64,000 bases of DNA. Source: an uncultured Pseudomonadota bacterium (GTDB lineage Bacteria; Pseudomonadota; Alphaproteobacteria; Rs-D84). The translations under genes and the position numbers were made by a program. Numbering within the stretch: the first letter of the stretch is position 1; the number at the start of each line of letters is the position of its first letter. This document shows positions 1 to 21,359 of this stretch, one piece after another. The notes beneath the pieces were generated by a model, which was given only the letters and a program-made list of their open reading frames with translations, was not told the origin of the DNA and searched no databases. The stretch lies in contig CACZUD010000002.1 of NCBI GenBank assembly GCA_902784345.1, positions 158,183 through 222,182 on the forward strand, read 5' to 3'.

Positions 1-1211
1 TTGGCGGCTTTTTCTGCAGTATCACAAACGAAGAACAAAGAAGAATTATCTCCTGCAATTTCACGCAGTTTTGCAATTCTGTCTGCATCTAATTTCTTTG
101 CAACAGGTCCTTTGGCTTCATCTGCAAAAACGATATAGCCCAATCCACCAAGTCCTAATTCTTTAACTGCGTATTCACCCAATTTATCGAACCAGGAACG
201 CGGCTTGTCTGCAGAATTTGGCGCAGGTATTGCACGAACCACAGATCCGTTTTCGACAGCATTTGCAAAAATTCCAAAATCAGATCCACGGAATATTTCA
301 CTTACATCAGATATTAAAATAGGATTACGCAAATCTGGTTTATCGCTTCCGTATTTTAACATTGCTTCATCGAATGGAATATGTGGAATTTCCGGTGCAA
401 CAACAGCATCTTTGACAAAAGTCTTGATAAGTTCTGGCATCAATTCATCGCCAACAGCCTGAATATCTTTTAAATCAACAAAAGACATCTCCAAATCTAA
501 TTGGTAAAATTCCAGCAATCTGTCCGCGCGCAAATCTTCATCACGAAAACAAGGTGCAATCTGGAAATATCTATCAAATCCAGAAATTTGAATTAATTGT
601 TTAAATTGTTGTGGTGCCTGTGGCAATGCATAAAACATGCCATGATGATTACGGCTTGGAACGATATAATCGCGGGCACCTTCTGGACTGGACACAGTCA
701 AAATAGGTGTTTGAAATTCTGAAAATCCCATATCCCACATTTTATCACGCAAGAATTTCATAACACGATTACGTGTCAAAATGTTATTATGCAAACTGTC
801 GCGACGCAAATCGATATAACGATATTTAAGGCGTAAATCTTCGGCCACAGTATCATCATCACCAAACACCTGGAAAGGCAGAACATCAGCATTTGTTAAA
901 ACTTCCCAGTTTTCAGATTTAATTTCAATATGTCCGGTTGGAATTTTGTCATTGATGGCTTCTTTATCACGCGCAACAACTGTACCAGTAATTTTTATAA
1001 CAGATTCAGGACGAACTTTTTCTAAATTTTCATCGCCCCCATCAAACACACACTGTGTTATTCCATAATTATCGCGCAAGTCCACGAACAAAAGCGAACC
1101 ATGATCGCGTTTACGATGAACCCAACCCGAAAGCGTAACTGTTTCGCCAACATTTTTTTCGTTTAATTCGCCACAGGTATGCGTTCTGTACTTTGATTTC
1201 AAAGAAAGCAT
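1..1211 (-). CDS. aspS: aspartate--tRNA ligase, N-terminal ~400 aa (gene continues beyond window start)
   Basis: Minus-strand translation from ATG at 1209-1211: [17 protein letters not shown]...[19 protein letters not shown]...FQLDLEMSF...QAPQQFKQL; class II AspRS anticodon-binding and catalytic motifs; no stop before coordinate 1. Confidence 0.9.
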
Positions 1212-3141: not shown

Positions 3142-3717
3142 ATGAAAAAAATATTTATTCCTTTATTTATATTATTTTTGTCTTTGCCCGCGATAGCGAA
3201 CGAATACTTTTTACCAGAAAACAAGACTTTCATGGGAACATATCAAAACCAAGTTGGCTTTGGTATTGGTCAGGGTTTTGATACAGGCTGGATTTTGCCG
3301 CCACCGACAAGACCTGTGCCTTTTTATATTGGAACATTTACATATTCACAACCAACAACTTTTTTTAGGGTTTCTGCGCGTCGTTCTATAAACATATCTG
3401 AAACATTGGGACTTGATAAAAAATATGGATGGAAATGGCAAGATTATACAATCCCTATGATTTATTTAACCGAAGATATATTGTTGCTTGATTGCAACGA
3501 TTTTTATGTTGCGACAGGTGCAGGGCTTGGTTTACAAGCACAAGAAAATGAACGCCTTGGTGCAAAGTTGATATTTCAATTCAAGGTAACGTTTGGCTAT
3601 CATATTAACGAACGATGGTCGACAGAATTCTTTGTTCAACATTTTTCCAATGCCAACACCGCAGATGAAAATCATTCTTACGCTTTCTATGGTCTTGGCT
3701 TTACGTATAATTATTAA
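3142..3717 (+). CDS. PagL-like lipid A 3-O-deacylase / outer-membrane acyloxyacyl hydrolase
   Basis: 191 aa, signal peptide MKKIFIPLFILFLSLPAIA; C-terminal VQHFSNANTADENHSYAFYGLGFTYNY resembles the PagL H-x-S-N ... E-S-Y catalytic region. Confidence 0.55.
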   Translation: MKKIFIPLFILFLSLPAIANEYFLPENKTFMGTYQNQVGFGIGQGFDTGWILPPPTRPVPFYIGTFTYSQPTTFFRVSARRSINISETLGLDKKYGWKWQDYTIPMIYLTEDILLLDCNDFYVATGAGLGLQAQENERLGAKLIFQFKVTFGYHINERWSTEFFVQHFSNANTADENHSYAFYGLGFTYNY

Positions 3718-5246: not shown

Positions 5247-7646
<2,400 letters not shown>

Positions 7647-7740: not shown

Positions 7741-8310
7741 ATGAAATTCAAATTATTATACTATGGCGACATACTGACAAACCCGAAAAAGCGGGCTCAA
7801 CACATTGCAGATATTCGCATGCAATTCCACCCACAGTTGAAAAAATTAGTAACCCTTCAGCCATGGAACAATTTAACCAAATTTATGATGCCAGATGCCA
7901 AGAAAAGCCCTATTATAACCCGTCATGTTGGCGGCATAGATTGGAACCCAATCATAACACCAAACCTGAAAATGATAGCAGAATTAGACATATTGTTAAT
8001 GCATCCTGAAATTGTGGGTGTTCCGCATTCTGATATAGACAACCGTGTTAAAACGATTTTGGACGGATTACGTTGTCCACAAAACGAACACGAAATTGGA
8101 CAAAATACACCTAAAGATATCGGACCAATTTACACATTACTGGACGACGACCATTTGGTTACAAAGTTAACTGTTAACACCAGCCATTTATTATCACCAA
8201 ATATCTTTCCGTGCAAAAAAGAATGCTCGCCAGATGCGGTCTTTATGTTAATAGACGTAAATGTACGCGTTACCGAAGGGACACTGGAAAACTTGCCATT
8301 TATGGTGTAA
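7741..8310 (+). CDS. hypothetical protein (189 aa)
   Basis: Clean ORF followed by intrinsic terminator; no family recognised by eye. Confidence 0.4.
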   Translation: MKFKLLYYGDILTNPKKRAQHIADIRMQFHPQLKKLVTLQPWNNLTKFMMPDAKKSPIITRHVGGIDWNPIITPNLKMIAELDILLMHPEIVGVPHSDIDNRVKTILDGLRCPQNEHEIGQNTPKDIGPIYTLLDDDHLVTKLTVNTSHLLSPNIFPCKKECSPDAVFMLIDVNVRVTEGTLENLPFMV

Positions 8311-8318
8311 AAATAATA

Positions 8319-8340
8319 ACGGCGCAGATGCGCCGTTTTT
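8319..8340 (+). terminator. bidirectional intrinsic terminator (acggcgcagatgcgccgt + T5) between convergent genes
   Basis: 8-bp GC stem, T-run. Confidence 0.6.
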
Positions 8341-9409
8341 ACATAAAGACCGAAGTTATTTGTTCTTGCATCTGGAACGTTCCCAAAACAACCCACCCAA
8401 TGATAATAGAAACAAGAATAATTCCGACACTGTTAAGAACACTTGAAATGCTTTCCATTTTACGAACAGATTCTTCCATATAATCATTTGCAATCTGATT
8501 AAGGTTTTTATCAAAATCGTTCATATCTGAGTAAATCATTAAATCGCCAATAATTTCTTCGTTTGGAAAATCTTTACCTGTCATCGCCAACGCGCTTCCC
8601 AGATTTTCACCATTAGCAATATAATGCAGTGTTTCTTCCAAAGTATCTGATAAATATCTGTTTCCTGAATCTGCCAATAAACGCATCGCATCTGGCACAG
8701 AAACACCCGCCGACACCATCGCAGCCAAAGACATCAACCAACTGACCGAAACTTGCAATTTATATGTGTTATACGGTGGAAATCTGTCAAAAAAGGTTCT
8801 GATTCTGCCCGTCCATATTGGTAATGACACCCAAATAAACGCAAACAAACCAACAAAAGTAATTGCTATACCATACCAATATTTGTTTGCAAAATCAGAC
8901 ACCCAAACCAGTGACGCTGCTGTTCCGCGCCAAACAACATCACTGCCTGCGGCTTCTGCCAATGGTGGCACAAGATAAATTCCAACCATAACAATTATTG
9001 CAACTGTTAAAGCGAACAAAAACAACGGGTACGCAACCGCAGACCACATTGCACGCTTTATACGATTTATTCCATTAACAACGCGACCAATATTTTCCAG
9101 TGATATTAACAAACTGCTTACATTACCAGAAGTCAACAAAAGTGTTTCTTCACTTGGTACCCAACCAGATGTCGCCTGGGCAAATGTCATACCACGTTCA
9201 AGATTCTTTTGAATTTCACGCATGGCAATCGCAAATGGTTCATTTGGTTTACGTCCATTATGCGATTCTATCATTTCAATACGATGCAACGCATCCATCA
9301 AAGTAAAATTATTACGCAAAAGCGATGCGATTTTACGCGAAACCGCCATACGTTTTTCAGTATCGGTTTTAAAAACTATTTTTGCATAAAGTAATTCCAG
9401 TTTATTCAT
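8339..9409 (-). CDS. GspF/PilC-family inner-membrane platform protein (TcpE/BfpE/R64-PilR-like size)
   Basis: 356 aa; cytoplasmic N-domain, three hydrophobic TM segments, duplicated T2SSF-like halves; follows the ATPase. Confidence 0.75.
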   Translation of the reverse strand: MNKLELLYAKIVFKTDTEKRMAVSRKIASLLRNNFTLMDALHRIEMIESHNGRKPNEPFAIAMREIQKNLERGMTFAQATSGWVPSEETLLLTSGNVSSLLISLENIGRVVNGINRIKRAMWSAVAYPLFLFALTVAIIVMVGIYLVPPLAEAAGSDVVWRGTAASLVWVSDFANKYWYGIAITFVGLFAFIWVSLPIWTGRIRTFFDRFPPYNTYKLQVSVSWLMSLAAMVSAGVSVPDAMRLLADSGNRYLSDTLEETLHYIANGENLGSALAMTGKDFPNEEIIGDLMIYSDMNDFDKNLNQIANDYMEESVRKMESISSVLNSVGIILVSIIIGWVVLGTFQMQEQITSVFM

Positions 9410-9413
9410 TATC

Positions 9414-11033
9414 TTAATACACCCATGGTCTGTCTAATAAACCAACCCAGCGTTCCAATTCATCAACACCGATTATTCCGCGCAACATTAATTCCGTAGC
9501 CGCTTCTTTCAATGTGCGCCCGTTCATTTTTTCCAACCAATACTTTGTTGCGCCTTCGGTATCGCCAGAAAGAGCCAAACTTAAAAATTCACTGTTCGTC
9601 ATTATAATTTCGCCCGCCTTGATACGACCAATAGTTCCAGAACCTTTACAATGTTCACACCCTGGTCCACGAACAAAAACCTGATTCAACCCCAAATCAC
9701 CAAATGCATCTTTGACACGATTATACGCACCATGATCATGATGATTAATTAATGGTTCACGACAATATGGACAAAGCTTTTTAAACAAACGCATAGACAC
9801 AAGACCGCGCATCATTGTTTCGTCTTTTAATTTGAAAGATTCGACACCCATATCCAATAAACGCGTCAGTGCACCCATTGCAGAATTCGCATGCAGTGTT
9901 GTCCAAACATTATGACCAGACAATGCGCCCTTTACAGTTAATTGCGCCGCAGACAGCGTTCTTATTTCGCCAACCATCAATGTATCAGGGTCGCTTCGCA
10001 ACGCAGCTGCCAATGCTTCTGTAAACTTTTCTTCTCTTTGTTCTTCATTAACCGCATTAACCACCGGCATTTGATGCGCACCAAAAATCTTTTGTTCCGC
10101 AGGATCTTCCACAGTAATAAGATTTATTTCATATCTTCTTTCTTTTAACATCAACGCCATATTACGAACTAATGTGGTTGATTTACCAGATGACGTAGGC
10201 CCCGCAACAATAACCAATCCTGTTGGCGCGGAACGCAATCTTAACAATAATTTTTGTTCGTATTCATTAAATTCTTGTTCTGTTTTGATACCTTCGCTTG
10301 GGTTATCGTAAAGCAGACGCATAACAACATATTGCGAACCGAACGCAATCGGATTGAATTGCATTCTAATGCCCAAAACACCAGCCGGCAAATAAAGATC
10401 TTTTGTCCCACGTAATGGTGTCCGACCATCTTTTTGTGCAGTTTGATATTCGTTTTGTGCATAACTGGAATTTGAAATATCAGCCGATGCAAATGCGGCC
10501 CTTACAAAAGATTCCCCCCACTGTGAATTATATTCCAGAACAGGTTGCATACTGCCATCAATACGGAAATAAATTGTTGTTTGATCTGCAACTTCAATAT
10601 GAACATCTGAAACTTTCTGCGCCGCGGCACGTGCGATTATATCGACAAAATCTTTTTGCATCTGATTATCATAATCGGCACGTGAATGAACTGTTCCGCC
10701 CAATCTTTCATCATTTGTTTTATAGATATTCGATATCAAGCCCAAATCTGAATAAAAAGGTTCTTTGATTGGGCGTTTTTTTTGATGTAACAAATCAAGG
10801 AAAGCCAGCACGCGTCCATCATAACGATGTGTTCGCGATATTATAATCTCGCCACCAGAAAAATACGCAATCAAACTCTGCGTATCTTTAGGCAAAGCCA
10901 ATTCTGATGTATACGCAGTTAACAAACGATTATTATTTGCAAACAAGTAATCGATAATATCTTTACTGTTCGCGTTTTCCAAACCGCTTGGTATAGATTG
11001 TTGATTTGAAAAAATATTTTCAGTGTTTGACAT
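9414..11033 (-). CDS. GspE/PilB-family secretion/pilus assembly ATPase
   Basis: 539 aa; Walker A GPTSSGKST, Asp box ITVEDPAE, Walker B DTLMVGEIR, His box VWTTLHANSA, tetracysteine CPYC...CEHC. Confidence 0.9.
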   Translation of the reverse strand: MSNTENIFSNQQSIPSGLENANSKDIIDYLFANNNRLLTAYTSELALPKDTQSLIAYFSGGEIIISRTHRYDGRVLAFLDLLHQKKRPIKEPFYSDLGLISNIYKTNDERLGGTVHSRADYDNQMQKDFVDIIARAAAQKVSDVHIEVADQTTIYFRIDGSMQPVLEYNSQWGESFVRAAFASADISNSSYAQNEYQTAQKDGRTPLRGTKDLYLPAGVLGIRMQFNPIAFGSQYVVMRLLYDNPSEGIKTEQEFNEYEQKLLLRLRSAPTGLVIVAGPTSSGKSTTLVRNMALMLKERRYEINLITVEDPAEQKIFGAHQMPVVNAVNEEQREEKFTEALAAALRSDPDTLMVGEIRTLSAAQLTVKGALSGHNVWTTLHANSAMGALTRLLDMGVESFKLKDETMMRGLVSMRLFKKLCPYCREPLINHHDHGAYNRVKDAFGDLGLNQVFVRGPGCEHCKGSGTIGRIKAGEIIMTNSEFLSLALSGDTEGATKYWLEKMNGRTLKEAATELMLRGIIGVDELERWVGLLDRPWVY

Positions 11034-11036
11034 TAT

Positions 11037-11705
11037 TTATTTTCCAATACTTAAACTTTCTATTTCACCATCTTTTTCAAAAATAATACCATCATTCAAA
11101 GAAATTGATTTAACAATATAACCATCTAATTCTTTACCAACAGCAATACGTCTGTTTTGACCAGTTGCAACATCTTCGATAGTCGCTTGTAATTGATTAC
11201 CCATACCAATAACATTTATCAATTTATATTTTTTATTAACATCTGTTTCAACTTTCTTTTCTGGTGCTTTTGCAACAGGTGCAGGTTCTTCATCCAGCGC
11301 AGCCATTTGACGTTTTAAATTTTCTGTTTGGATATCCAACTGGGTTTTTGCGGCTTCTAATTCGTGTTGTTGTTGTTCTGCGCGTCCCGAAAGAGTATCT
11401 AATTCCATTTGCAATTTAATTTTTTCTGCATTTAATCTTTCCAAATCTAAATCTAGTTGCGCACGTTCTTTTTCTAATTGTACAACAACCTTTTCCTGTT
11501 CCAGCATTGTTATTTTTTCAAACAACGAACCATTTTCATTATAATTAAGCAGCGCGTCTGCAGACATTTTGTCCGCAGAATCAAAATCAGATACACTTTC
11601 TTCAACAATTTCTTCTTCGACATAATCATCATACGCAAAAACCGACTGGTTTACACCAATCACAAACAAAGAAACTATCATTATCAAATTCAATTTTTTC
11701 AACAT
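11037..11705 (-). CDS. secreted coiled-coil protein (position of BfpU/TcpS/PilP in type IVb pilus operons)
   Basis: Signal peptide MLKKLNLIMIVSLFVIGVNQSVFA; ~80-aa heptad-rich segment LEKERAQLDLDLERLNAEKIKLQMELD; C-terminal beta-rich domain. Confidence 0.5.
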   Translation of the reverse strand: MLKKLNLIMIVSLFVIGVNQSVFAYDDYVEEEIVEESVSDFDSADKMSADALLNYNENGSLFEKITMLEQEKVVVQLEKERAQLDLDLERLNAEKIKLQMELDTLSGRAEQQQHELEAAKTQLDIQTENLKRQMAALDEEPAPVAKAPEKKVETDVNKKYKLINVIGMGNQLQATIEDVATGQNRRIAVGKELDGYIVKSISLNDGIIFEKDGEIESLSIGK

Positions 11706-11716
11706 TTTTTGCCCTT

Positions 11717-12991
11717 TTATTTTGTATAAATAATTACTTCATAATTCCAAGTCCTTGTATTAGCACGCCAAGAAACAGATGTCATGTAAACACCCTGAAA
11801 ATCTTTAAAAGCATACATAAATTCAGATGGTATTAATTTTGAAGAAACCGCAACTTCTGTTACATGAACAGTTTCGCTTATGCCGTTATTCAAAATTGTA
11901 TCCGAAACATTGTTTATTTCTGCACGCGCCCCTATTTGTTGAAAAACACTGGCAATATCACGCGCAGCACTTATTGGATCGCGTTCATCTAACGAAGAAT
12001 ATGTCTTTAATGTTGGTAATTTAACACGAACGATAACTTCATCTTCTGATGTTTGTTGAACAACAGCCCCCGGCATTAATTCGCCACCAATTTCATAAAA
12101 ATCGTTCAGTGTTCCAAAATCCCGCATAAACGTCGCAGACACATATTCCCCATCACACTTTGCAAAAGTCTGATTCCAACCTGCGATTGGCTGCATAACA
12201 AAAGCGATTGCTTTATAGCATAAATTTGCACGTTCCATTACATTTGGCAAATTATCATATGGATATTGGAAAGACTGTACTGCTGCTTCTTGAGCTAATT
12301 TTTTATCTAAAATTTCTTGTTTTTTTAATTCTATTTGTTTTCTGTATTCGTTTGCCAACTCTGTATTTAAATTTACACCTTTATCAGATGGTGTTTTTAT
12401 TGGATTGCTTAAAATATAAAAACCGAACAAAACAAACAAAACGGCCATCAACAACGACGGCAACACCGCTTTCAAGAAACAAAATGGACGCAAACGCGCG
12501 ATATTACTATTTTTACCAATCAAATCAGATATATCTTTTTCTTGCGATTTGGGCATACCCCAACTTGCCGGCGCAATTAAAAGCCCCCAATCTGGCAAAG
12601 CAGAAAGTTCTGTATACGCTTTGCGTGCATCTTCTTGTTTTTCAAACAAAATATCACGAATAATAATTCCGTTTCTTACTGCGACAAGATAAAAACGATT
12701 ATTGACATTGAATACCGCCAAAAAAGAAATAAATTCTGATAAAGACTCTGCAATTTGTGCTGCCGCACTTTCGATACCTGTCTTTGCACCATCATAAGAA
12801 GATCCTACCCCAACCATAGATCGATATTCTGTAAAATAGCATCTTCTTTTACTTCCTGATTTAGCCAATTCTTTTGCGGCACTGCGTGCTGTATTACCAA
12901 CCCGCAGGGGCTGCCAAAAAAGCCCTGTTGCAAATTTTTTATGACGAACAGTTATGATTTGTTTTATCAATCTCTCTCTCTTTATGTGCAT
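11717..12991 (-). CDS. bitopic inner-membrane protein (BfpC/TcpD/PilO/GspL-like topology); start uncertain
   Basis: ~200-aa cytoplasmic domain, single TM FLKAVLPSLLMAVLFVLFGFYIL, ~220-aa periplasmic domain. The ORF track N-terminus (to 13075) runs through the upstream gene's terminator, so the start is placed at ATG 12989-12991. Confidence 0.5.
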   Translation of the reverse strand: MHIKRERLIKQIITVRHKKFATGLFWQPLRVGNTARSAAKELAKSGSKRRCYFTEYRSMVGVGSSYDGAKTGIESAAAQIAESLSEFISFLAVFNVNNRFYLVAVRNGIIIRDILFEKQEDARKAYTELSALPDWGLLIAPASWGMPKSQEKDISDLIGKNSNIARLRPFCFLKAVLPSLLMAVLFVLFGFYILSNPIKTPSDKGVNLNTELANEYRKQIELKKQEILDKKLAQEAAVQSFQYPYDNLPNVMERANLCYKAIAFVMQPIAGWNQTFAKCDGEYVSATFMRDFGTLNDFYEIGGELMPGAVVQQTSEDEVIVRVKLPTLKTYSSLDERDPISAARDIASVFQQIGARAEINNVSDTILNNGISETVHVTEVAVSSKLIPSEFMYAFKDFQGVYMTSVSWRANTRTWNYEVIIYTK

Positions 12992-13034
12992 TATAGCACA
13001 AATAGATAAAAAAAATAAAGACGAAATTTGTACT

Positions 13035-13060
13035 AAAAAAGTCGTATTTCTACGACTTTT
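13035..13060 (-). terminator. intrinsic terminator after lipoprotein gene (gtcgtatttctacgac + T-run on minus strand)
   Basis: Hairpin 7 nt downstream of the stop at 13063. Confidence 0.55.
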
Positions 13061-13062
13061 CA

Positions 13063-13377
13063 TTATTTTTGACAATTATATACCTTTACTTTGAATTTAA
13101 AGGTTTTATCTGGGCCAAAAAACGTATCTGGAATTTCTGTAATATCCTGTTTTACAATGTAATAAGAATCACCTATTTTTTCTTGTTCCAATATGCTTTT
13201 TTCCAGATATTCATATGCATCTGATAATTTATAATTTTTAACATTGGAATCCAGAGTATATAAAAATTCACAATTTTTTGGTTCATTATCTAATCTAACC
13301 AAACCAGAACCAGCATCTGTGGATGTTGCACACCCTGCCAATACAATCAAAGACGATAAAGTTAAAATTTTTTTCAT
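13063..13377 (-). CDS. small lipoprotein (104 aa)
   Basis: Lipobox LAGC at the signal peptide end; two further Cys. Confidence 0.5.
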   Translation of the reverse strand: MKKILTLSSLIVLAGCATSTDAGSGLVRLDNEPKNCEFLYTLDSNVKNYKLSDAYEYLEKSILEQEKIGDSYYIVKQDITEIPDTFFGPDKTFKFKVKVYNCQK

Positions 13378-13386
13378 TTTTTTCTC

Positions 13387-14322
13387 CTATTCTTCAACAA
13401 TTTCATAATTAGATTTATCACTAAATAATTTTCGCAAAACCAGATTATTCAACGCATGTGAACCTTTGTATGATTCCAGATGACCGTATATAAAACCACC
13501 ACTTGTGAACATATCACCAACTGCATCTATGATTTTATGACGAACAAATTCGTCTTTATAATATAACTTGTTAAGAACACCATCACCTGCATCATTTAAC
13601 GCAATAACATTGTTTTCATTTGCGCCACGACCCATACCGTGTGCTTTCAGATATTCCCATTCAGAATATTTCCCAAAAGTACGTGATTTTGAAATATCTT
13701 TGATAAATTTATCTTTTGATTTTTTAGTTTCGTCTAACAAACAAGAATAAGATTGTGTTCCGATAATTTTATCTTTGTAAACCAAAGTTGCATCTATTAA
13801 CAAGCCATTATCGTTTGGGGACAATTTAACATAACCATTACCATTGCGCCAAATTGTGTGATTTAAAATTATCATTTTTATCTTTTTCCAGAAAGGCATT
13901 GTTTTTACTAATTCATTACGATATGCAATTATTGGCTTTTTAACAATTATTTTTTTGATATTTGATTTTGAATCTGTTGCGTCTTTGAAAAGATTTATAA
14001 ATTCGTAAGCACTGCCATCTAAAATTGGTGTCTCTGGTCCATCTATTTCAATAATCGCAGAATCTATCCCGGTTATAAAAAGCGCGGCCATCAAGTGTTC
14101 TATGGTTTGAACATGTGCGCCGTTTTTATCGCCAATTGTAGTATTACGCATTAATGTTTCGCCTACATTATCATATTTTGCAGGAATTAAATCAGATTCT
14201 GGCAAATCGGTTCTTTTGAAAAATATTCCGGACTTCTTAGACGGTTTTATAACCATATTTACTGGTAATCCAGAATGAATTCCAACACCTGATATTTTAA
14301 TTTTTTTGTTCAACTGTTTCAT
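13387..14322 (-). CDS. lpxC: UDP-3-O-acyl-N-acetylglucosamine deacetylase
   Basis: TIEHLMAAL, HKIIDAVGDMF (HKxxDxxGD) motifs; 311 aa. Confidence 0.9.
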   Translation of the reverse strand: MKQLNKKIKISGVGIHSGLPVNMVIKPSKKSGIFFKRTDLPESDLIPAKYDNVGETLMRNTTIGDKNGAHVQTIEHLMAALFITGIDSAIIEIDGPETPILDGSAYEFINLFKDATDSKSNIKKIIVKKPIIAYRNELVKTMPFWKKIKMIILNHTIWRNGNGYVKLSPNDNGLLIDATLVYKDKIIGTQSYSCLLDETKKSKDKFIKDISKSRTFGKYSEWEYLKAHGMGRGANENNVIALNDAGDGVLNKLYYKDEFVRHKIIDAVGDMFTSGGFIYGHLESYKGSHALNNLVLRKLFSDKSNYEIVEE

Positions 14323-15229
14323 TAACCTTTCCTTTTAACCAATCATAAAATTTAGAATCTATATCTGTTTGCAATGCAGAAAACTTTATTTGTTCCTTTG
14401 CCCATTGTGGCAAGCGTACCCAATCTTTTTCCGTAGTCAACAATTTGGCATTTTTTTCTTTTGCCAAACTCGTCAACTTTTTTATATCTTCATCTGTATA
14501 TTGATAATGGTCAGGAAAAGAGATTTTTTCAATTATCTTGCAAGGAATATTATCAAAGAATTTCTCAGGGTACCCAATCCCAGCAAACGCAACCACATTT
14601 GTATTTTTATCATACGGACAAATTTCACTGTTTTTTGCTTGAAACACTGGAATATTTGTTGGTAAAGCAAAATCTGGACGCACATCTTTTCTTTTTATAA
14701 GAATTATCGCATCTGCACGTTTTATAGCAGATTTAGTTTCACGCAACGGACCCGCAGGCAATAAAAATCCATTTCCAAAACCAATAGATTCATCAAATAC
14801 CAACACAGAAATATCTTTTTTTATCGAAGAATTTTGAAAACCATCGTCCATTACTATTGGGGTATCTGATTTTTGCTTGTTTAACAAAATCAAATTACTT
14901 TTACGATTACCAACATGCACCAAAATATTATCAGAAGATAACATTTTTGCTTCGTCCCCAATACCCCCTGTTTGTTTAGATTTTTTATATCCGCGCATCA
15001 CAACAGGTGCATCAAAGAACTTTGCAACATTACGAACTATCGGTGTTTTACCGACACCACCAGATAAAATATTACCAAAACAAATAATCGGACGACGCGA
15101 TACATATTCGCGTTTTTTACGCATATTGAAAACAGTCTTGCTGCCCAATAAATAAAACAAAGAAAGCGGCAACAACATGACCGATGAAAAACTTCTTTTC
15201 AAAAACCACTTTGGTGTTTTCATGAGCAA
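14297..15229 (-). CDS. lpxK: tetraacyldisaccharide 4'-kinase
   Basis: P-loop GNILSGGVGKTP; 310 aa; 26-nt overlap with lpxC. Confidence 0.85.
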   Translation of the reverse strand: MLMKTPKWFLKRSFSSVMLLPLSLFYLLGSKTVFNMRKKREYVSRRPIICFGNILSGGVGKTPIVRNVAKFFDAPVVMRGYKKSKQTGGIGDEAKMLSSDNILVHVGNRKSNLILLNKQKSDTPIVMDDGFQNSSIKKDISVLVFDESIGFGNGFLLPAGPLRETKSAIKRADAIILIKRKDVRPDFALPTNIPVFQAKNSEICPYDKNTNVVAFAGIGYPEKFFDNIPCKIIEKISFPDHYQYTDEDIKKLTSLAKEKNAKLLTTEKDWVRLPQWAKEQIKFSALQTDIDSKFYDWLKGKVNETVEQKN

Positions 15230-16815: not shown

Positions 16816-17454
16816 CTAATCTATAACTATATCAGAATTTTTCATTTTTTTATAAAAATCATCACATTTCCAAATATGATAGCTGTCGCCACGTTCATCT
16901 ATTTTTTTATTTTCCAATGTTAATTCTTCTACTATATCTGATTTAATTTTTTCAACAAAATCACTTTTATTTAATTTTTCAGAAAAATCAGGCACTTCTT
17001 TTTCAGATTTTATGAATATTGGTTTAAAATCTTTTGCGCCATCTTTCACAGATTTTTTTATCTTATCAAGATTAGATTTTATCACATTTTTATAAACATT
17101 TACATGATCTTGTTCATGTCTATAAACTATATCATACGCACAAGATTTTTCTTTTAATCTTTTATCTATTATAACATCAAAATCTTCAATAATTTCAATA
17201 TCAATACCACGCAAAGATGCACAATATCCGCCGTGTACAGGAATTATTACCGTATGCGCCATGGCACTGTACGACATCTTTGGTTCTGTATAACCCAACT
17301 TTCCAACCATTTCTTTATCTGATTTTTGAGTTTTAACATCTTTAATGTTTAATTTTATATCAACATCTGGATTATATTTATACTTTGAACAATCATATGC
17401 AAAAGACATATATGGTGAAAACACAAATAACAAAAAGATTATTTTCTTAAACAT
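16816..17454 (-). CDS. secreted HExxH protein (DUF922-like), paralog A
   Basis: Signal peptide MFKKIIFLLFVFSPYMSFA; HEQDH motif. Confidence 0.55.
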   Translation of the reverse strand: MFKKIIFLLFVFSPYMSFAYDCSKYKYNPDVDIKLNIKDVKTQKSDKEMVGKLGYTEPKMSYSAMAHTVIIPVHGGYCASLRGIDIEIIEDFDVIIDKRLKEKSCAYDIVYRHEQDHVNVYKNVIKSNLDKIKKSVKDGAKDFKPIFIKSEKEVPDFSEKLNKSDFVEKIKSDIVEELTLENKKIDERGDSYHIWKCDDFYKKMKNSDIVID

Positions 17455-17494: not shown

Positions 17495-18532
17495 TTATTT
17501 TTTATCTATTTCAGATAAATATTCTTCATACATAAAATCCCAAATGTTCACATATTTTTTACAAACCCGTTCATAATTATCCAAAACAGCCGGTAATCTG
17601 CGTTTATATTCTTCTGGGGTGCACATCTTTAAAACTTGTTCTATATCTGATTCTGTTGTTATTTTTATTATGCCATCTGGGTTAAAGAATTGATCTATTT
17701 CTGTCGCACCAAGATATATTGGAATACATTGGTTTGCCAGTGCTGTTGTAAATCTTTCTGAAAAATAGTATTTATTCACGTCATTTTCTAAACAAATACA
17801 AAACATATAATCGCGGTAAGTATCTGATAATTTTTCTACACGTGGACCACCATCAAAATTACCAAAAGTATCGCATAAATGTTCTTTTTTACACTTTATT
17901 GCTAAATTGTACCTGAATTCGTGCAGTGAACACATACGTTTATCAGAAGAAATAAAAGAACAAATTTTACTTTTGTGTTTATACATTTCTGGTTCACATG
18001 GTTCGTCCCAAATACCAGCAGCAAAAGGAACAAATCTTGCATTCGGGATTGTGTCTAAAATCTTTGAAGAATATGTAAAAATATAATCAAACTGTTTATA
18101 TAAATCGGGATATTTTTCAAATATTTTATAATCTTCTGGGACAATAGATTCAGATTCTACAAACATACCAAATTTATGTTTTGGTTTTCCCATTGTTTCC
18201 AACATGGCATCATTAGTGTAAAAATGCATATCTAACCCAATATTAAATTTATCCCATATAAAATATTTTGATGCTTCGGCAGAACAATAATCAAAATGTC
18301 TATCGCGCAGGAAAAAAGTCCGCATTTTTTTTCCATCTTTATTATAAATATCTGGTTCTTTATTACTTGGTAAAATCGCAAAATTATAGTAAGGAAAAAA
18401 TAACTTGCCATACAACGTTTTAACATAACGATGTTTTTCACTGGTGTTATTTTTATAGCTCGCGATTTTTATACCACATAAATATACGTGTACACGACCA
18501 TTTGTGCCTATTTCTTTTTTTAAAAATTTCAT
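17495..18532 (-). CDS. GT10-family alpha-1,3-fucosyltransferase-like glycosyltransferase
   Basis: DYMFCICLENDVNKYYFSERFTTALANQCIPIYLGATEIDQFFNPDGIIKI matches the alpha1,3-FucT motif of H. pylori FutA (KFNLCFENTQGYGYVTEKIIDAYFSHTIPIYWGSPSVAKDFNPKSFVNV). Confidence 0.65.
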   Translation of the reverse strand: MKFLKKEIGTNGRVHVYLCGIKIASYKNNTSEKHRYVKTLYGKLFFPYYNFAILPSNKEPDIYNKDGKKMRTFFLRDRHFDYCSAEASKYFIWDKFNIGLDMHFYTNDAMLETMGKPKHKFGMFVESESIVPEDYKIFEKYPDLYKQFDYIFTYSSKILDTIPNARFVPFAAGIWDEPCEPEMYKHKSKICSFISSDKRMCSLHEFRYNLAIKCKKEHLCDTFGNFDGGPRVEKLSDTYRDYMFCICLENDVNKYYFSERFTTALANQCIPIYLGATEIDQFFNPDGIIKITTESDIEQVLKMCTPEEYKRRLPAVLDNYERVCKKYVNIWDFMYEEYLSEIDKK

Positions 18533-18641: not shown

Positions 18642-21056
18642 TTACATTGTTTGCTTTTTTAAATATTCTGCAACAAAGTTATTTCCATATGTTTTATAAA
18701 GTTCTTCGGCCAATAATACAGATGAACGTCCGGATTCAAATAACTTTAACATATTTCCCAAACCACCCAATTCAGTATTTAAAATCACAGATTCCCCGTT
18801 AACAGGACGTGATAATAATACCGCACGTTTAAGATTTGGATATGCCTGACCTTTGATAAATGCCATTTCCAGTGGATTTAAATTCCATTTTTCATAATCA
18901 CTGGTATCTGCCGCAGGATTACGGAAGAATAATACAGTCTGTGCCTGACCACGAACAACATCACCTATCCCAAGTTTATCAAGAACATTTGCACGTTGGA
19001 AAGCAACCATATATGCCTGACGATTTTTACGACCTTCTTGAAGTCCGGCTATGAAATTATCGCGAAACATTTTATTTTCCAACATTGGTGCTGTTTCATC
19101 AATCATAATAAGTGAAGGATTTCCGCCGGATACAGTTACATTATTTATTCTGTGTAATATATAAGATATAACAGCCGGCGCCAATACTTCATCTTGCAAA
19201 ATTTCTGTAAAATCAAAAGTTGTTAAACGCGCACCTAAATCAAGAGTATCTGCTTCTTCATTAAATATGTCGCCATATTGTAATGGATCAACCCATTTCT
19301 TTAATTCGGCGCGCATCGGGCCACTGGATGAAAAACAGCTTTCATAAAGATTCTTTAATAACCTGTCTTTATCCTGCAGATAATCAAAGTTAACAGATAC
19401 AGCACGTGCAATTTCATCCATTGATTCTGCATCATTAATATTGGTTATCATTGAAAACCATCTGCGTAAAAATGCACGATTACTGCTACTATCTGGCATT
19501 TTCAGAGGATTCAAATGTGTTAAAAATGCGTCACTACTTGCATCTTTTTCTTTGCCATTCATTGTTATATATTTACCACCAACAGCCAGAGTAAATATTT
19601 CAGCCCCCTTGTTTCTGTCAAAGAAAAACGCTTTTAACTTTTGATAACGTAAAGATTGTGCAATAAGGAACGAGAACAAAGTCGTTTTACCACCACCAGT
19701 TGGACCTATGGTCAGGGTATGACCAACGGCTGCCGGTTTATCAGAAACATGAAATTGAAATTGATATGGTGTTCCTTGGGCTGTTGGGAAAACAACAATT
19801 GGACCCTGACCCCAATCACTGTCCTTAACACCAGTTGGCATAGATGACAACGGTATACTTGTTGCAGCCGTCTTTGATAACATTTTAAATATTCTTGGAA
19901 ATACATCAAATCCAGGTAATTGAGCAAAAAAGGACACTTTTGATGCAAAAGTTTCAACAACTGGTGATATACCAAATGAAGCAGATATTTTCTTAAATTC
20001 ATCAACATATTCATTTAATTCTTCTATACTTTTACCAAACAACATAAACAAAGGATAATAATCAACCAATGTTTGATTACCAGTTTGATTTTCATCCATT
20101 TGATTTTGTGCTTCACTTATTTGTTCAAGTGTAGATTCTTCTGTTTCATCGGTAATAGTTGAACGATGTTGACGCATCAGTGTTTCAATATCACTTGATT
20201 GTAAAATATGAAAAGCATTCATACATATCATTTCACATTGAATAGTTGAAACAGTATCAAAAAATTCTTCATCCATATAATCAGGCGATATTTTAAAAGA
20301 AAGTGCAGCAGCATAATATTTTTTATCACCACTGGTATATTCAATTACACCGTTTTTCATAAATTCAACATTATCAACACATACTAAATTTGATATATTT
20401 TCGTCACATTTTTTTATTATCGGCTTTGATACAGGTGACAAAATTCTACCAAAGAAAGTTGCCATATTATCGATATTATTATTTCTTAACAATATTGGTT
20501 TATATGCAGATAATATAGATTCAACATAATTACAACACTGATTTAATTTTTCACGATTATTTTGACCATGAACAGAAACAACAACATAATAATTATTAGA
20601 ATAAATCTTTAAACCTTGATTATTCCATTTATCATATATTTTCTGCAAAGTTGGCTGATCAAATTCATAATCTGTTTTTTGGTCTATGAAATCACGAATT
20701 GTAAAAAATCGCAGACAAACATCAGGATCTTGAATTTGATTAAATAATTGGGCACGCAAATCCAGCATTTTTTCACGATTTTTATCACTCATCATACTGG
20801 TTTGTACACCTTTTATTTTATAAACACGAACCAAAGATCCATCATCAATCGATAAACTGTCATCACTGTAAACGGCATTGAAAGGTAAATAATCGGAATA
20901 TTTTGTATAACCAAATTTTGGAAAAACTTTCTTTACAATTGTTGGTATATAAGCCAACAAAACCAAAAATACCAGAACAACAGACATTGCTATTATAACC
21001 AAAGTCAATGTCATAGAATCTGTATTTCCTGCAAAATAATTAAATAATCTTTCCAT
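18642..21056 (-). CDS. virB4: type IV secretion system ATPase VirB4/TrbE family
   Basis: 804 aa; N-terminal TM; Walker A TIGPTGGGKTT; CagE_TrbE_VirB-type C-terminal domain. Confidence 0.9.
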   Translation of the reverse strand: MERLFNYFAGNTDSMTLTLVIIAMSVVLVFLVLLAYIPTIVKKVFPKFGYTKYSDYLPFNAVYSDDSLSIDDGSLVRVYKIKGVQTSMMSDKNREKMLDLRAQLFNQIQDPDVCLRFFTIRDFIDQKTDYEFDQPTLQKIYDKWNNQGLKIYSNNYYVVVSVHGQNNREKLNQCCNYVESILSAYKPILLRNNNIDNMATFFGRILSPVSKPIIKKCDENISNLVCVDNVEFMKNGVIEYTSGDKKYYAAALSFKISPDYMDEEFFDTVSTIQCEMICMNAFHILQSSDIETLMRQHRSTITDETEESTLEQISEAQNQMDENQTGNQTLVDYYPLFMLFGKSIEELNEYVDEFKKISASFGISPVVETFASKVSFFAQLPGFDVFPRIFKMLSKTAATSIPLSSMPTGVKDSDWGQGPIVVFPTAQGTPYQFQFHVSDKPAAVGHTLTIGPTGGGKTTLFSFLIAQSLRYQKLKAFFFDRNKGAEIFTLAVGGKYITMNGKEKDASSDAFLTHLNPLKMPDSSSNRAFLRRWFSMITNINDAESMDEIARAVSVNFDYLQDKDRLLKNLYESCFSSSGPMRAELKKWVDPLQYGDIFNEEADTLDLGARLTTFDFTEILQDEVLAPAVISYILHRINNVTVSGGNPSLIMIDETAPMLENKMFRDNFIAGLQEGRKNRQAYMVAFQRANVLDKLGIGDVVRGQAQTVLFFRNPAADTSDYEKWNLNPLEMAFIKGQAYPNLKRAVLLSRPVNGESVILNTELGGLGNMLKLFESGRSSVLLAEELYKTYGNNFVAEYLKKQTM

Positions 21057-21059
21057 TTT

Positions 21060-21359
21060 TTACACTACTAATTTTCTTGGCACCCTATTTTTTATTATTC
21101 TTATACTTGAAAATATAGTTTGAGCGATTTGCGGATCTTGTTTTGAATAAAAAGCCAATATTGCATGACAAAGCGATAAAATACCCAAAAAAAACAAAGG
21201 TAACCACATCGGTATATTACGTGGCGGGATTATCAAAAAAAAGATTATTCCCGCTACAAAAACCAAGAACCAAATCAGGAAATTTAATATTGCAAGATTA
21301 TAAGGCACATAAAATATGCGCGGTGGGTTTGCCAAAGCTTTCAGAACTTTTTGCCTCAA
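21060..21359 (-). CDS. virB3: type IV secretion system protein VirB3
   Basis: 99 aa; LANPPRIFYVPYNLAILNF (VirB3 L..P....GVP......N motif) followed by two TM helices; 3 nt upstream of virB4. Confidence 0.75.
   Translation of the reverse strand: MRQKVLKALANPPRIFYVPYNLAILNFLIWFLVFVAGIIFFLIIPPRNIPMWLPLFFLGILSLCHAILAFYSKQDPQIAQTIFSSIRIIKNRVPRKLVV

Follow-up and report, generated by a model that had tools for sequence, protein, structure and literature searches.

A probable type IVb pilus-like assembly module on the chromosome of Candidatus Enterousia and a divergent secretin at a second locus

The guts of animals and humans are home to a widespread lineage of uncultured, genome-reduced bacteria, Candidatus Enterousia (order Rs-D84), and the locus described here raises the question of what a seemingly incomplete pilus-assembly module is doing on the chromosome of such an organism. 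The module occupies positions 8339-13377, minus strand, of a 64 kb stretch of contig CACZUD010000002.1 (hereafter the window, along which all positions are counted). An earlier reading of the DNA, referred to here as the original prediction, took it for an orphan set of inner-membrane components, without pilin, secretin or prepilin peptidase, that looked like an insertion between housekeeping genes. We favor a different view of its status, which on balance we judge probable: that the module supplies the inner-membrane assembly subcomplex for a type IVb pilus-like machine of the R64 thin-pilus/bundle-forming pilus (BFP) class, a machine that is chromosomal and vertically inherited. The genes of this machine are scattered, with a divergent secretin encoded in a second conserved locus approximately 20 kb away and, by synteny, just outside the window.

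Five co-directional open reading frames (ORFs) are present on the minus strand exactly where they had been placed (Table 1), and profile searches matched the families of the four that reproduce the gene order of type IVb pilus operons; the predicted 104-amino-acid lipoprotein gene also lies next to them. The gaps among the last four genes are only 3-11 nt, as in a tight operon. As regards the terminators thought to flank the module, the convergent one is a strong hairpin, common to the platform gene and to x189, a gene that converges on it; the supposed upstream terminator is merely a weak A+T-rich hairpin between the lipoprotein and PilO-like genes. The start of the PilO-like gene can be read in two ways. 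Its ORF at maximum extends to 13075, and in near-identical contigs gene callers begin it at an ATG overlapping the lipoprotein stop (13063), which gives a product of 448 amino acids; if that were the true start, the weak hairpin would sit within the ORF. We prefer the 424-amino-acid form, starting at the ATG at 12991, because conservation among orthologues begins only at ERELIKQ and because the alignment to the crystal structure of PilO2Bp runs from residue 5.

One indication of the class of machine comes from the ATPase, which matches T2SSE in Pfam at 1.7e-65. The motifs originally attributed to it can all be read from the translation: Walker A (GPTSSGKST), the Asp box (ITVEDPAEQ), Walker B (DPDTLMVGEIR), the His box (GHNVWTTLHANSA) and the cysteine tetrad CPYC...CEHC. 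Its closest solved structure is BfpD (8dze; 9.4e-76, 259 bits), aligned over residues 32-523 and thus at full length, and in the same comparison against PDB it scored 155 bits with GspE and ~135 bits with PilB. It reached 218 bits with the GspE equivalog TIGR02533, where the cut-off is 630, and 41 bits with the TadA-family model TIGR03819, where the cut-off is 373. On plasmids the best tblastn matches, at 31-36% identity, fall inside operons of the R64 thin-pilus class that encode a TcpQ-like protein, a PilN secretin, PilO2, PilP, the ATPase, a GspF-like protein, pilin, a PilT-like protein, PilM and PilV. Public records (e.g. MBR5355111.1 and MBR3511033.1) name orthologues of this ATPase 'Flp pilus assembly complex ATPase component TadA'. 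This label is misleading, given that the TadA-family score is far under its cut-off and that BfpD is the closest solved relative, and to judge from these scores it is a misannotation. The platform protein matches PF00482 at 1.3e-24, with two repeats, and PilC (3jc8) at 2.8e-16.

The accessory proteins point in the same direction. The profile comparison that had been proposed as a check of the module proteins yielded matches to T2SSE, T2SSF and PAP_PilO, and a match to TIGR03021 that is under the cut-off in the window's own copy. More specifically, the bitopic protein, whose single transmembrane segment separates an N-domain in the cytoplasm from a C-domain in the periplasm, matches PAP_PilO (PF06864) at 7.1e-10 and 38.7 bits (cut-off 26.7). 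It also matches annotated pilO2 genes on plasmids (tblastn), and its top PDB match is PilO2Bp (4byz, E 0.028), whose N-domain has an actin-like fold in common with BfpC (PMC3984277). The 222-amino-acid protein has a Sec signal peptide, a coiled coil and a C-terminal beta domain, the C-terminal part being the stretch best conserved among orthologues. The window copy scores 1.8e-6 and 29 bits against pilP_fam TIGR03021 (cut-off 34.65), and all 26 orthologues searched match the same model (E up to 0.01, the best at 7.2e-12). Taken together, BfpD as the closest solved relative of the ATPase, the R64-like plasmid operons and the match to PilO2Bp bear out the assignment of these four genes to the type IVb core, pilO-pilP-pilQ-pilR or bfpC-U-D-E.

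The small lipoprotein is harder to place. Its gene always lies between lpxC and pilO in related loci, and its orthologues share the lipobox and two further invariant cysteines. It matched no Pfam or NCBIfam family and nothing significant in PDB by sequence; an AlphaFold2 model (predicted local distance difference test, pLDDT, 78.5) has a beta-beta-alpha-beta-beta fold. It could be part of the pilus machine or could go with the upstream lpx genes.

Does the machine have an outer-membrane channel? In one related locus (L059) an insert directly after pilR carries ftsA, ftsQ, a small lipoprotein gene, a 107-amino-acid ORF, a gene for a 451-amino-acid lipoprotein, lolE and lolD. The 451-amino-acid lipoprotein gives a weak STN match and no Secretin match in Pfam, its terminal motif is secretin-like by eye, and no copy of it is encoded in the window. 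Its family comprises at least 1204 homologues (440-453 amino acids, ~75% identical) that carry a lipobox, have no Pfam domain and, where named, are recorded as 'hypothetical protein [Candidatus Enterousia sp.]'. Their gene always stands in the order x108-secretin-lolE-lolD, beside the Lol lipoprotein-sorting genes.

We searched a 31-member profile of this family against 1.84 billion representatives and recovered first intermediates of 380-510 amino acids and then proteins of 460-845 amino acids. All ten of the distant proteins tested contain PF00263 Secretin, with a TcpQ domain in two and an STN domain in three. Profile-profile alignment with hhalign, in which the Enterousia-plus-intermediate set was compared with a separate group of 27 of the distant relatives, PF00263 having been confirmed in ten, gave a probability of 99.95% and an E of 5e-38 over 331 columns, including the secretin domain, and extends through that domain to the terminal ELVVFMSPR strand. 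When the profile was broadened with some true secretins its best PDB match was the type IVb secretin lipoprotein BfpB (9.6e-8), before PilQ and GspD. The link to secretins is visible only after the exhaustive profile search supplied the intermediates: a shallow Enterousia-only alignment compared by hhalign with single PilN sequences matched at the lipobox only, and the Enterousia-only profile found nothing in PDB. On the strength of these alignments, the 440-453-amino-acid lipoprotein is a shortened, divergent type IVb-like secretin.

The position of the secretin gene relative to the module can be estimated from relatives, in which the second locus reads aspS-x123-asmA-uvrB-x86-tsaE-ftsA-ftsQ-lipo126-x108-secretin-lolE-lolD-x225-x213. 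On contig JAEXCU010000001.1 the ATPase gene (83141-84733) and the secretin gene (107812-109173) are 23 kb apart; since this one contig bears both loci, module and secretin share one genome. The window begins with the 5' part of an aspS gene that is cut by its left edge, and over positions 3-272 it agrees at 88% identity with residues 1-90 of the partial aspS in locus L087. The left edge thus corresponds to about position 270 of L087, in which the secretin starts at 10001. Because aspS is found at the left edge of the window and ~9.7 kb upstream of the secretin in relatives, the secretin should lie ~9.7 kb past that edge. The contigs of the intermediate secretin relatives (L084-L086) are short and carry no pil genes. 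The description of the module as an orphan without a secretin must accordingly be given up, as a second locus of the lineage encodes a lipoprotein secretin, if a divergent one, and in one relative this is on the same contig as the module. A complete pilin-secretin-peptidase set immediately outside the window had been named as one finding that would overturn the original prediction; what synteny places near there, at ~9.7 kb, is the secretin only.

The suggestion that the module was inserted between lpxC and gyrB, either as a recent acquisition or as the remnant of a thin-pilus module from a conjugative plasmid or integrative and conjugative element, can be weighed against its distribution. A one-genome-per-species scan with the ATPase returned 226 relatives, and the best 80 loci were fetched and compared. 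Close relatives of the ATPase run to thousands in gut and rumen metagenomes; the best 80 come from metagenome-assembled genomes labelled Candidatus Enterousia, Alphaproteobacteria or 'Rickettsiales', obtained from the rumen and from horses, chickens, termites and humans. As far as the contigs extend, the gene order DUF374-lpxK-lpxC-lipoprotein-pilO-pilP-ATPase-platform-(x189)-gyrB is kept in 80 of 80 loci. Identity to the window protein is 80-94% for the ATPase (80 species; mean 84%) and 64-93% for the platform (78 loci; mean 73%). Mean identities are 90% for gyrB and 69% for lpxC, and fall to 54% for PilP, 52% for PilO and 44% for the lipoprotein.

It is true that the nearest systems with a full gene set are plasmid-borne, next to conjugation genes, and that a tRNA-Met gene is located 2.7 kb upstream, as an acquired element might lead one to expect. 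Against this, the position is identical in all 80 loci, whose ATPases span 80-94% identity, and the plasmid homologues are merely 31-36% identical. In addition, the G+C content of the module (0.33-0.41) is the same as that of the surrounding DNA with no compositional break, and no integrase, relaxase or repeat was found at its borders. The neighbors are lpxC, lpxK and gyrB, and the virB3 and virB4 genes nearby likewise belong to the conserved chromosome. Given the constant order and the absence of a compositional break, we reject an insertion and consider acquisition or a plasmid remnant highly improbable.

A related idea is that the module is the decaying relic of a lost pilus system and has no present function, for which one could cite the partner genes missing from the window. 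The ORFs are intact in 76-80 species, however, and the ratios of nonsynonymous to synonymous substitution rates (dN/dS) of the window genes, measured against the six closest species, are those of constrained genes: ~0.05 for the ATPase, 0.05-0.13 for the platform, 0.10-0.19 for PilO, 0.14-0.18 for PilP and 0.14-0.22 for the lipoprotein, compared with 0.03-0.045 for gyrB and 0.06-0.10 for lpxC. All five genes are under purifying selection, and the ATPase, which is close to gyrB in this respect, is constrained like a housekeeping gene. We therefore give the relic scenario almost no credence. The module is an old, vertically inherited and selectively maintained part of the chromosome, neither an insertion nor a relic.

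One boundary of the module is variable in other species. The spacer that separates the platform gene from x189, 28 nt long in the window (8311-8338), is a hotspot of insertion and rearrangement, and inserts were seen at it in loci L017, L018, L022, L043, L059, L061, L062, L065, L068, L069, L071 and L077. Among the inserted genes are some for porin-like and for large Cys-rich surface proteins, one for a sigma factor and, in L068, those of a restriction-modification system; in L059 the insert is the whole ftsAQ-secretin-lolED block.

What the machine would polymerize is a separate matter. A six-frame scan of the 64 kb for class III signals (Gly/Ala/Ser, four residues, Glu, then a hydrophobic helix) found none, Pfam scans of the 55 largest ORFs in the window revealed no secretin and no A24 peptidase, and no pilin-like N-terminus was seen when the remaining short and intergenic ORFs of the window were read by eye. 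The original prediction was therefore right that the 64 kb hold no class III pilin, secretin or prepilin peptidase. Nothing convincing emerged either when relaxed class III scans were applied to one near-identical contig and to three contigs that carry intermediate relatives of the secretin. One gene near the secretin was tried as a pilin candidate and rejected: the protein of 180-246 amino acids encoded after lolD has no Glu5 and aligns with other families over its transmembrane segment alone. Its N-terminus, a basic leader, a Gly and a hydrophobic helix (e.g. RKVWG/VLALAGLFTCGVFIG), has a superficial class III likeness, and it is probably a bitopic membrane protein.

Several observations weigh against the type IVb pilus model that we favor. 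Relaxed class III scans revealed nothing convincing in the flanks of the 80 modules (~21 kb each) or near the secretin (~20 kb around it, in four loci from Enterousia genomes), there is no A24 or N_methyl among the precomputed Pfam matches of genes within 10 kb of the secretin, and no retraction ATPase was seen. Genes for pilin and prepilin peptidase are assumed in the model. The secretin itself has several deletions in the secretin domain on the Enterousia side of the profile-profile alignment, and an AlphaFold2 model of it built with 31 close homologues reached a pLDDT of only 34. Furthermore, the secretin sequences come from relatives, and the place of the gene in the window's own genome depends on aspS synteny. 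Finally, the function that we propose below, adhesion or uptake, is speculative and argued by analogy alone.

One response to the missing partners would be to suppose that pilins and prepilin peptidase have been lost, and that ATPase, platform, PilO2, PilP and a truncated secretin have been repurposed as a pilin-independent motor or channel spanning the envelope. A machine of this kind would, for example, exchange macromolecules with a partner cell. This would account for the absence of pilin and peptidase genes from ~85 kb of contiguous or syntenic sequence and from the flanks of 80 other species, for the truncated secretin domain and for the extreme reduction of the genome. We nevertheless regard it, including the proposed exchange, as improbable. 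The searches together with the window cover only roughly a tenth of the genome, and in a reshuffled genome where 20 kb already separate the secretin from its partners, local absence is weak evidence for absence overall. The platform and the N-domains of the full-length ATPase are strongly conserved, as would be expected if pilins were still handled, and a type IV filament machine able to work without pilins is not known. Should the pilin really be missing, the type IV filament superfamily would here have its first member without pilins.

Another scenario retains a filament in a shorter form. The machine could chiefly secrete, like type II secretion or the toxin-coregulated pilus exporting TcpF, with a short periplasmic pseudopilus that drives proteins out through the secretin and no long external pilus. 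The components would be identical to those of the pilus model, and the shortened secretin, the lack of standard transporters in a genome thought to be partner-dependent (PMC12306168) and the presence nearby of secreted proteins of unknown function (e.g. x204 and x212) would all fit. The ATPase is nevertheless nearer to BfpD than to GspE (259 versus 155 bits), PilO2 and PilP take the place of GspC, L and M, no pseudopilin genes were seen in the window or in the 80 flanks, and no substrate candidate is linked to the operon. We consider a mainly secretory role unlikely, if somewhat easier to envisage than a motor without pilins.

Returning to the type IVb pilus-like machine, a plausible scheme for its action can be drawn from the known architectures of type IVb, type IVa and type II systems. 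The ATPase hexamer would have two docking sites, the platform and the actin-like domain that PilO2 has in the cytoplasm, and the periplasmic domain of PilO2 together with PilP would form an alignment complex. The C-terminal beta domain of PilP would contact the N-terminal domains of the secretin and so link the inner-membrane complex to it. ATP hydrolysis would then power extraction of pilin from the inner membrane and its polymerization into a fiber through the secretin, the pilin subunits being encoded elsewhere in the scattered genome. We speculate that by means of the fiber the bacterium might hold on to host mucus or to a partner cell; equally speculatively, the machine may also move DNA or proteins alongside a VirB-type type IV secretion system (T4SS), or take up DNA as a source of nucleotides.

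Enterousia genomes are ~0.7-1.0 Mb, without respiration, most biosynthesis and standard transporters, and the organisms are thought to be obligate symbionts or parasites dependent on a partner; the paper that describes them reports type IV pili for another lineage alone (PMC12306168). Among the literature that we searched there was no report of a type IVb machine in Enterousia. Among the most conserved non-housekeeping gene sets of the lineage there is a type IVb pilus-like machine that has been labelled 'TadA' or 'hypothetical' and whose secretin escapes Pfam. The machine is a concrete candidate for the attachment or exchange apparatus of Enterousia. It also offers a conserved surface target, for instance for enrichment, for fluorescence in situ hybridization combined with cryo-electron tomography (FISH-cryoET) or for co-culture.

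The rest of the window is devoted to housekeeping genes (dnaG, topA, rodA, PBP2, mreBCD, pheST, ileS, metG, mutS and others) and also encodes a MacAB-TolC-type pump. The virB3-virB4 pair of a P-type T4SS lies 5 kb from the pil operon and is conserved in the flanks of relatives. No other virB genes are found in the window, which suggests that here again the genes of one machine are scattered, as in Rickettsiales. The product of x189 is more conserved than LpxC (mean 82% identity, dN/dS ~0.03). Searches of Pfam, NCBIfam and PDB gave no match to it; we take its DIDNRVKTILDGL and LLDDD motifs to be reminiscent of RusA-type resolvases, an unconfirmed likeness. Two tandem paralogous secreted proteins of 204 and 212 amino acids (x204 and x212) have no family match and are conserved across the genus. 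GT10 fucosyltransferase-like and PagL lipid A deacylase-like genes flank the lpx region, a possible sign that surface glycans and lipid A are modified or resemble those of the host in this symbiont.

Table 1. Features of the module, its surroundings in the window and the second locus in relatives
Feature	Position	Strand	Basis or remark
Lipoprotein, 104 amino acids	13063-13377	-	ORF; lipobox LAGC, two further conserved Cys
PilO2/BfpC-family bitopic inner-membrane protein, 424 amino acids	11717-12991	-	PF06864
PilP-family periplasmic protein, 222 amino acids	11037-11705	-	TIGR03021
Type IVb-class extension ATPase, 539 amino acids (BfpD/R64 PilQ type)	9414-11033	-	T2SSE; BfpD
GspF/PilC-family inner-membrane platform, 356 amino acids	8339-9409	-	PF00482, two T2SSF repeats
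Weak A+T-rich hairpin, lipoprotein stop to 424-amino-acid PilO2 start	13037-13060		10 pairs, 3 G-C
G+C-rich bidirectional terminator hairpin, operon end	8318-8337		8 pairs, 6 G-C, then T tract
lpxC	13387-14322	-	Upstream of lipoprotein gene
lpxK	14297-15229	-	Upstream of lpxC
x189, 189-amino-acid gene convergent with platform gene	7741-8310	+	ORF
gyrB	5247-7646		ORF; after x189
aspS, 5' part, off left edge of window	1-1210	-	Synteny anchor
virB3-virB4, P-type T4SS	18642-21359	-	5 kb from pil operon; conserved in flanks of relatives
Two tandem paralogous secreted proteins, 204 and 212 amino acids	16199-16813, 16816-17454	-	HExxH motifs HEDEH, HEQDH
GT10 fucosyltransferase-like gene	17495-18532	-	Flanks lpx region
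PagL lipid A deacylase-like gene	3142-3717	+	Flanks lpx region
Secretin-like lipoprotein in relatives	L059:10820-12175, L083:10001-11329, L087:10001-11350, L093:3001-4362		Order x108-secretin-lolE-lolD
Gene after lolD in relatives, protein of 180-246 amino acids	L083:13354-13896, L087:13386-14063, L059:14186-14926, L093:6377-6964		

How does this system compare with those already known? With the Tad/Flp pilus the sole likeness is membership of its ATPase in the secretion ATPase superfamily. We rejected this assignment on three grounds: (i) the TIGR03819 score is 41 bits against a cut-off of 373; (ii) there is a single two-repeat GspF platform rather than a TadB/TadC pair; and (iii) PilO2 and PilP are not Tad components. 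The type II secretion system (T2SS; GspC-M, GspO) has more in common with it, namely a GspE superfamily ATPase, a GspF platform, a secretin, and the architecture of an inner-membrane complex plus secretin. Unlike the T2SS, the Enterousia loci yielded neither pseudopilins nor members of the GspC, L or M families, and the secretin is a lipoprotein nearest the type IVb kind. A canonical T2SS was likewise rejected on the basis that the GspE equivalog score is under its cut-off, the ATPase is nearer to BfpD, and the accessory proteins are PilO2 and PilP.

The resemblance to the BFP of enteropathogenic Escherichia coli (bfpB-C-U-D-E) is closer. Among solved structures BfpD (8dze) is the best relative of the ATPase and BfpB (9u5s) that of the secretin profile once broadened, the module has its genes in the C-U-D-E order, and BfpC shares the PilO2 fold (PMC3984277). 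The BFP, by contrast, is encoded by a 14-gene plasmid operon in which bundlin and minor pilins are accompanied by a peptidase (BfpP) and a retraction ATPase (BfpF); we saw none of them at the loci described here.

The R64/PAPI-1 thin pilus (pilL-M-N-O-P-Q-R-S-T-U-V; e.g. Methylovorus pMsip01 and Bosea pBSY19_1) differs from the Enterousia system in being carried on conjugative elements, whereas the latter is chromosomal and vertically inherited in a genome of <1 Mb. It also differs in that the Enterousia secretin is at a second locus ~20 kb off, ~100 amino acids shorter and under the Pfam threshold, that PilP has an added coiled coil, and that no pilS or pilV pilins, shufflon, pilT-like gene, pilM or peptidase gene was found near the Enterousia loci. 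In other respects it is in this class that the best tblastn relatives of both the ATPase (33-36%) and PilO2 (22-25%) are found. The order pilO2-pilP-ATPase-platform is present in both systems, both match PF06864 and TIGR03021, and in both the secretin is a lipoprotein.

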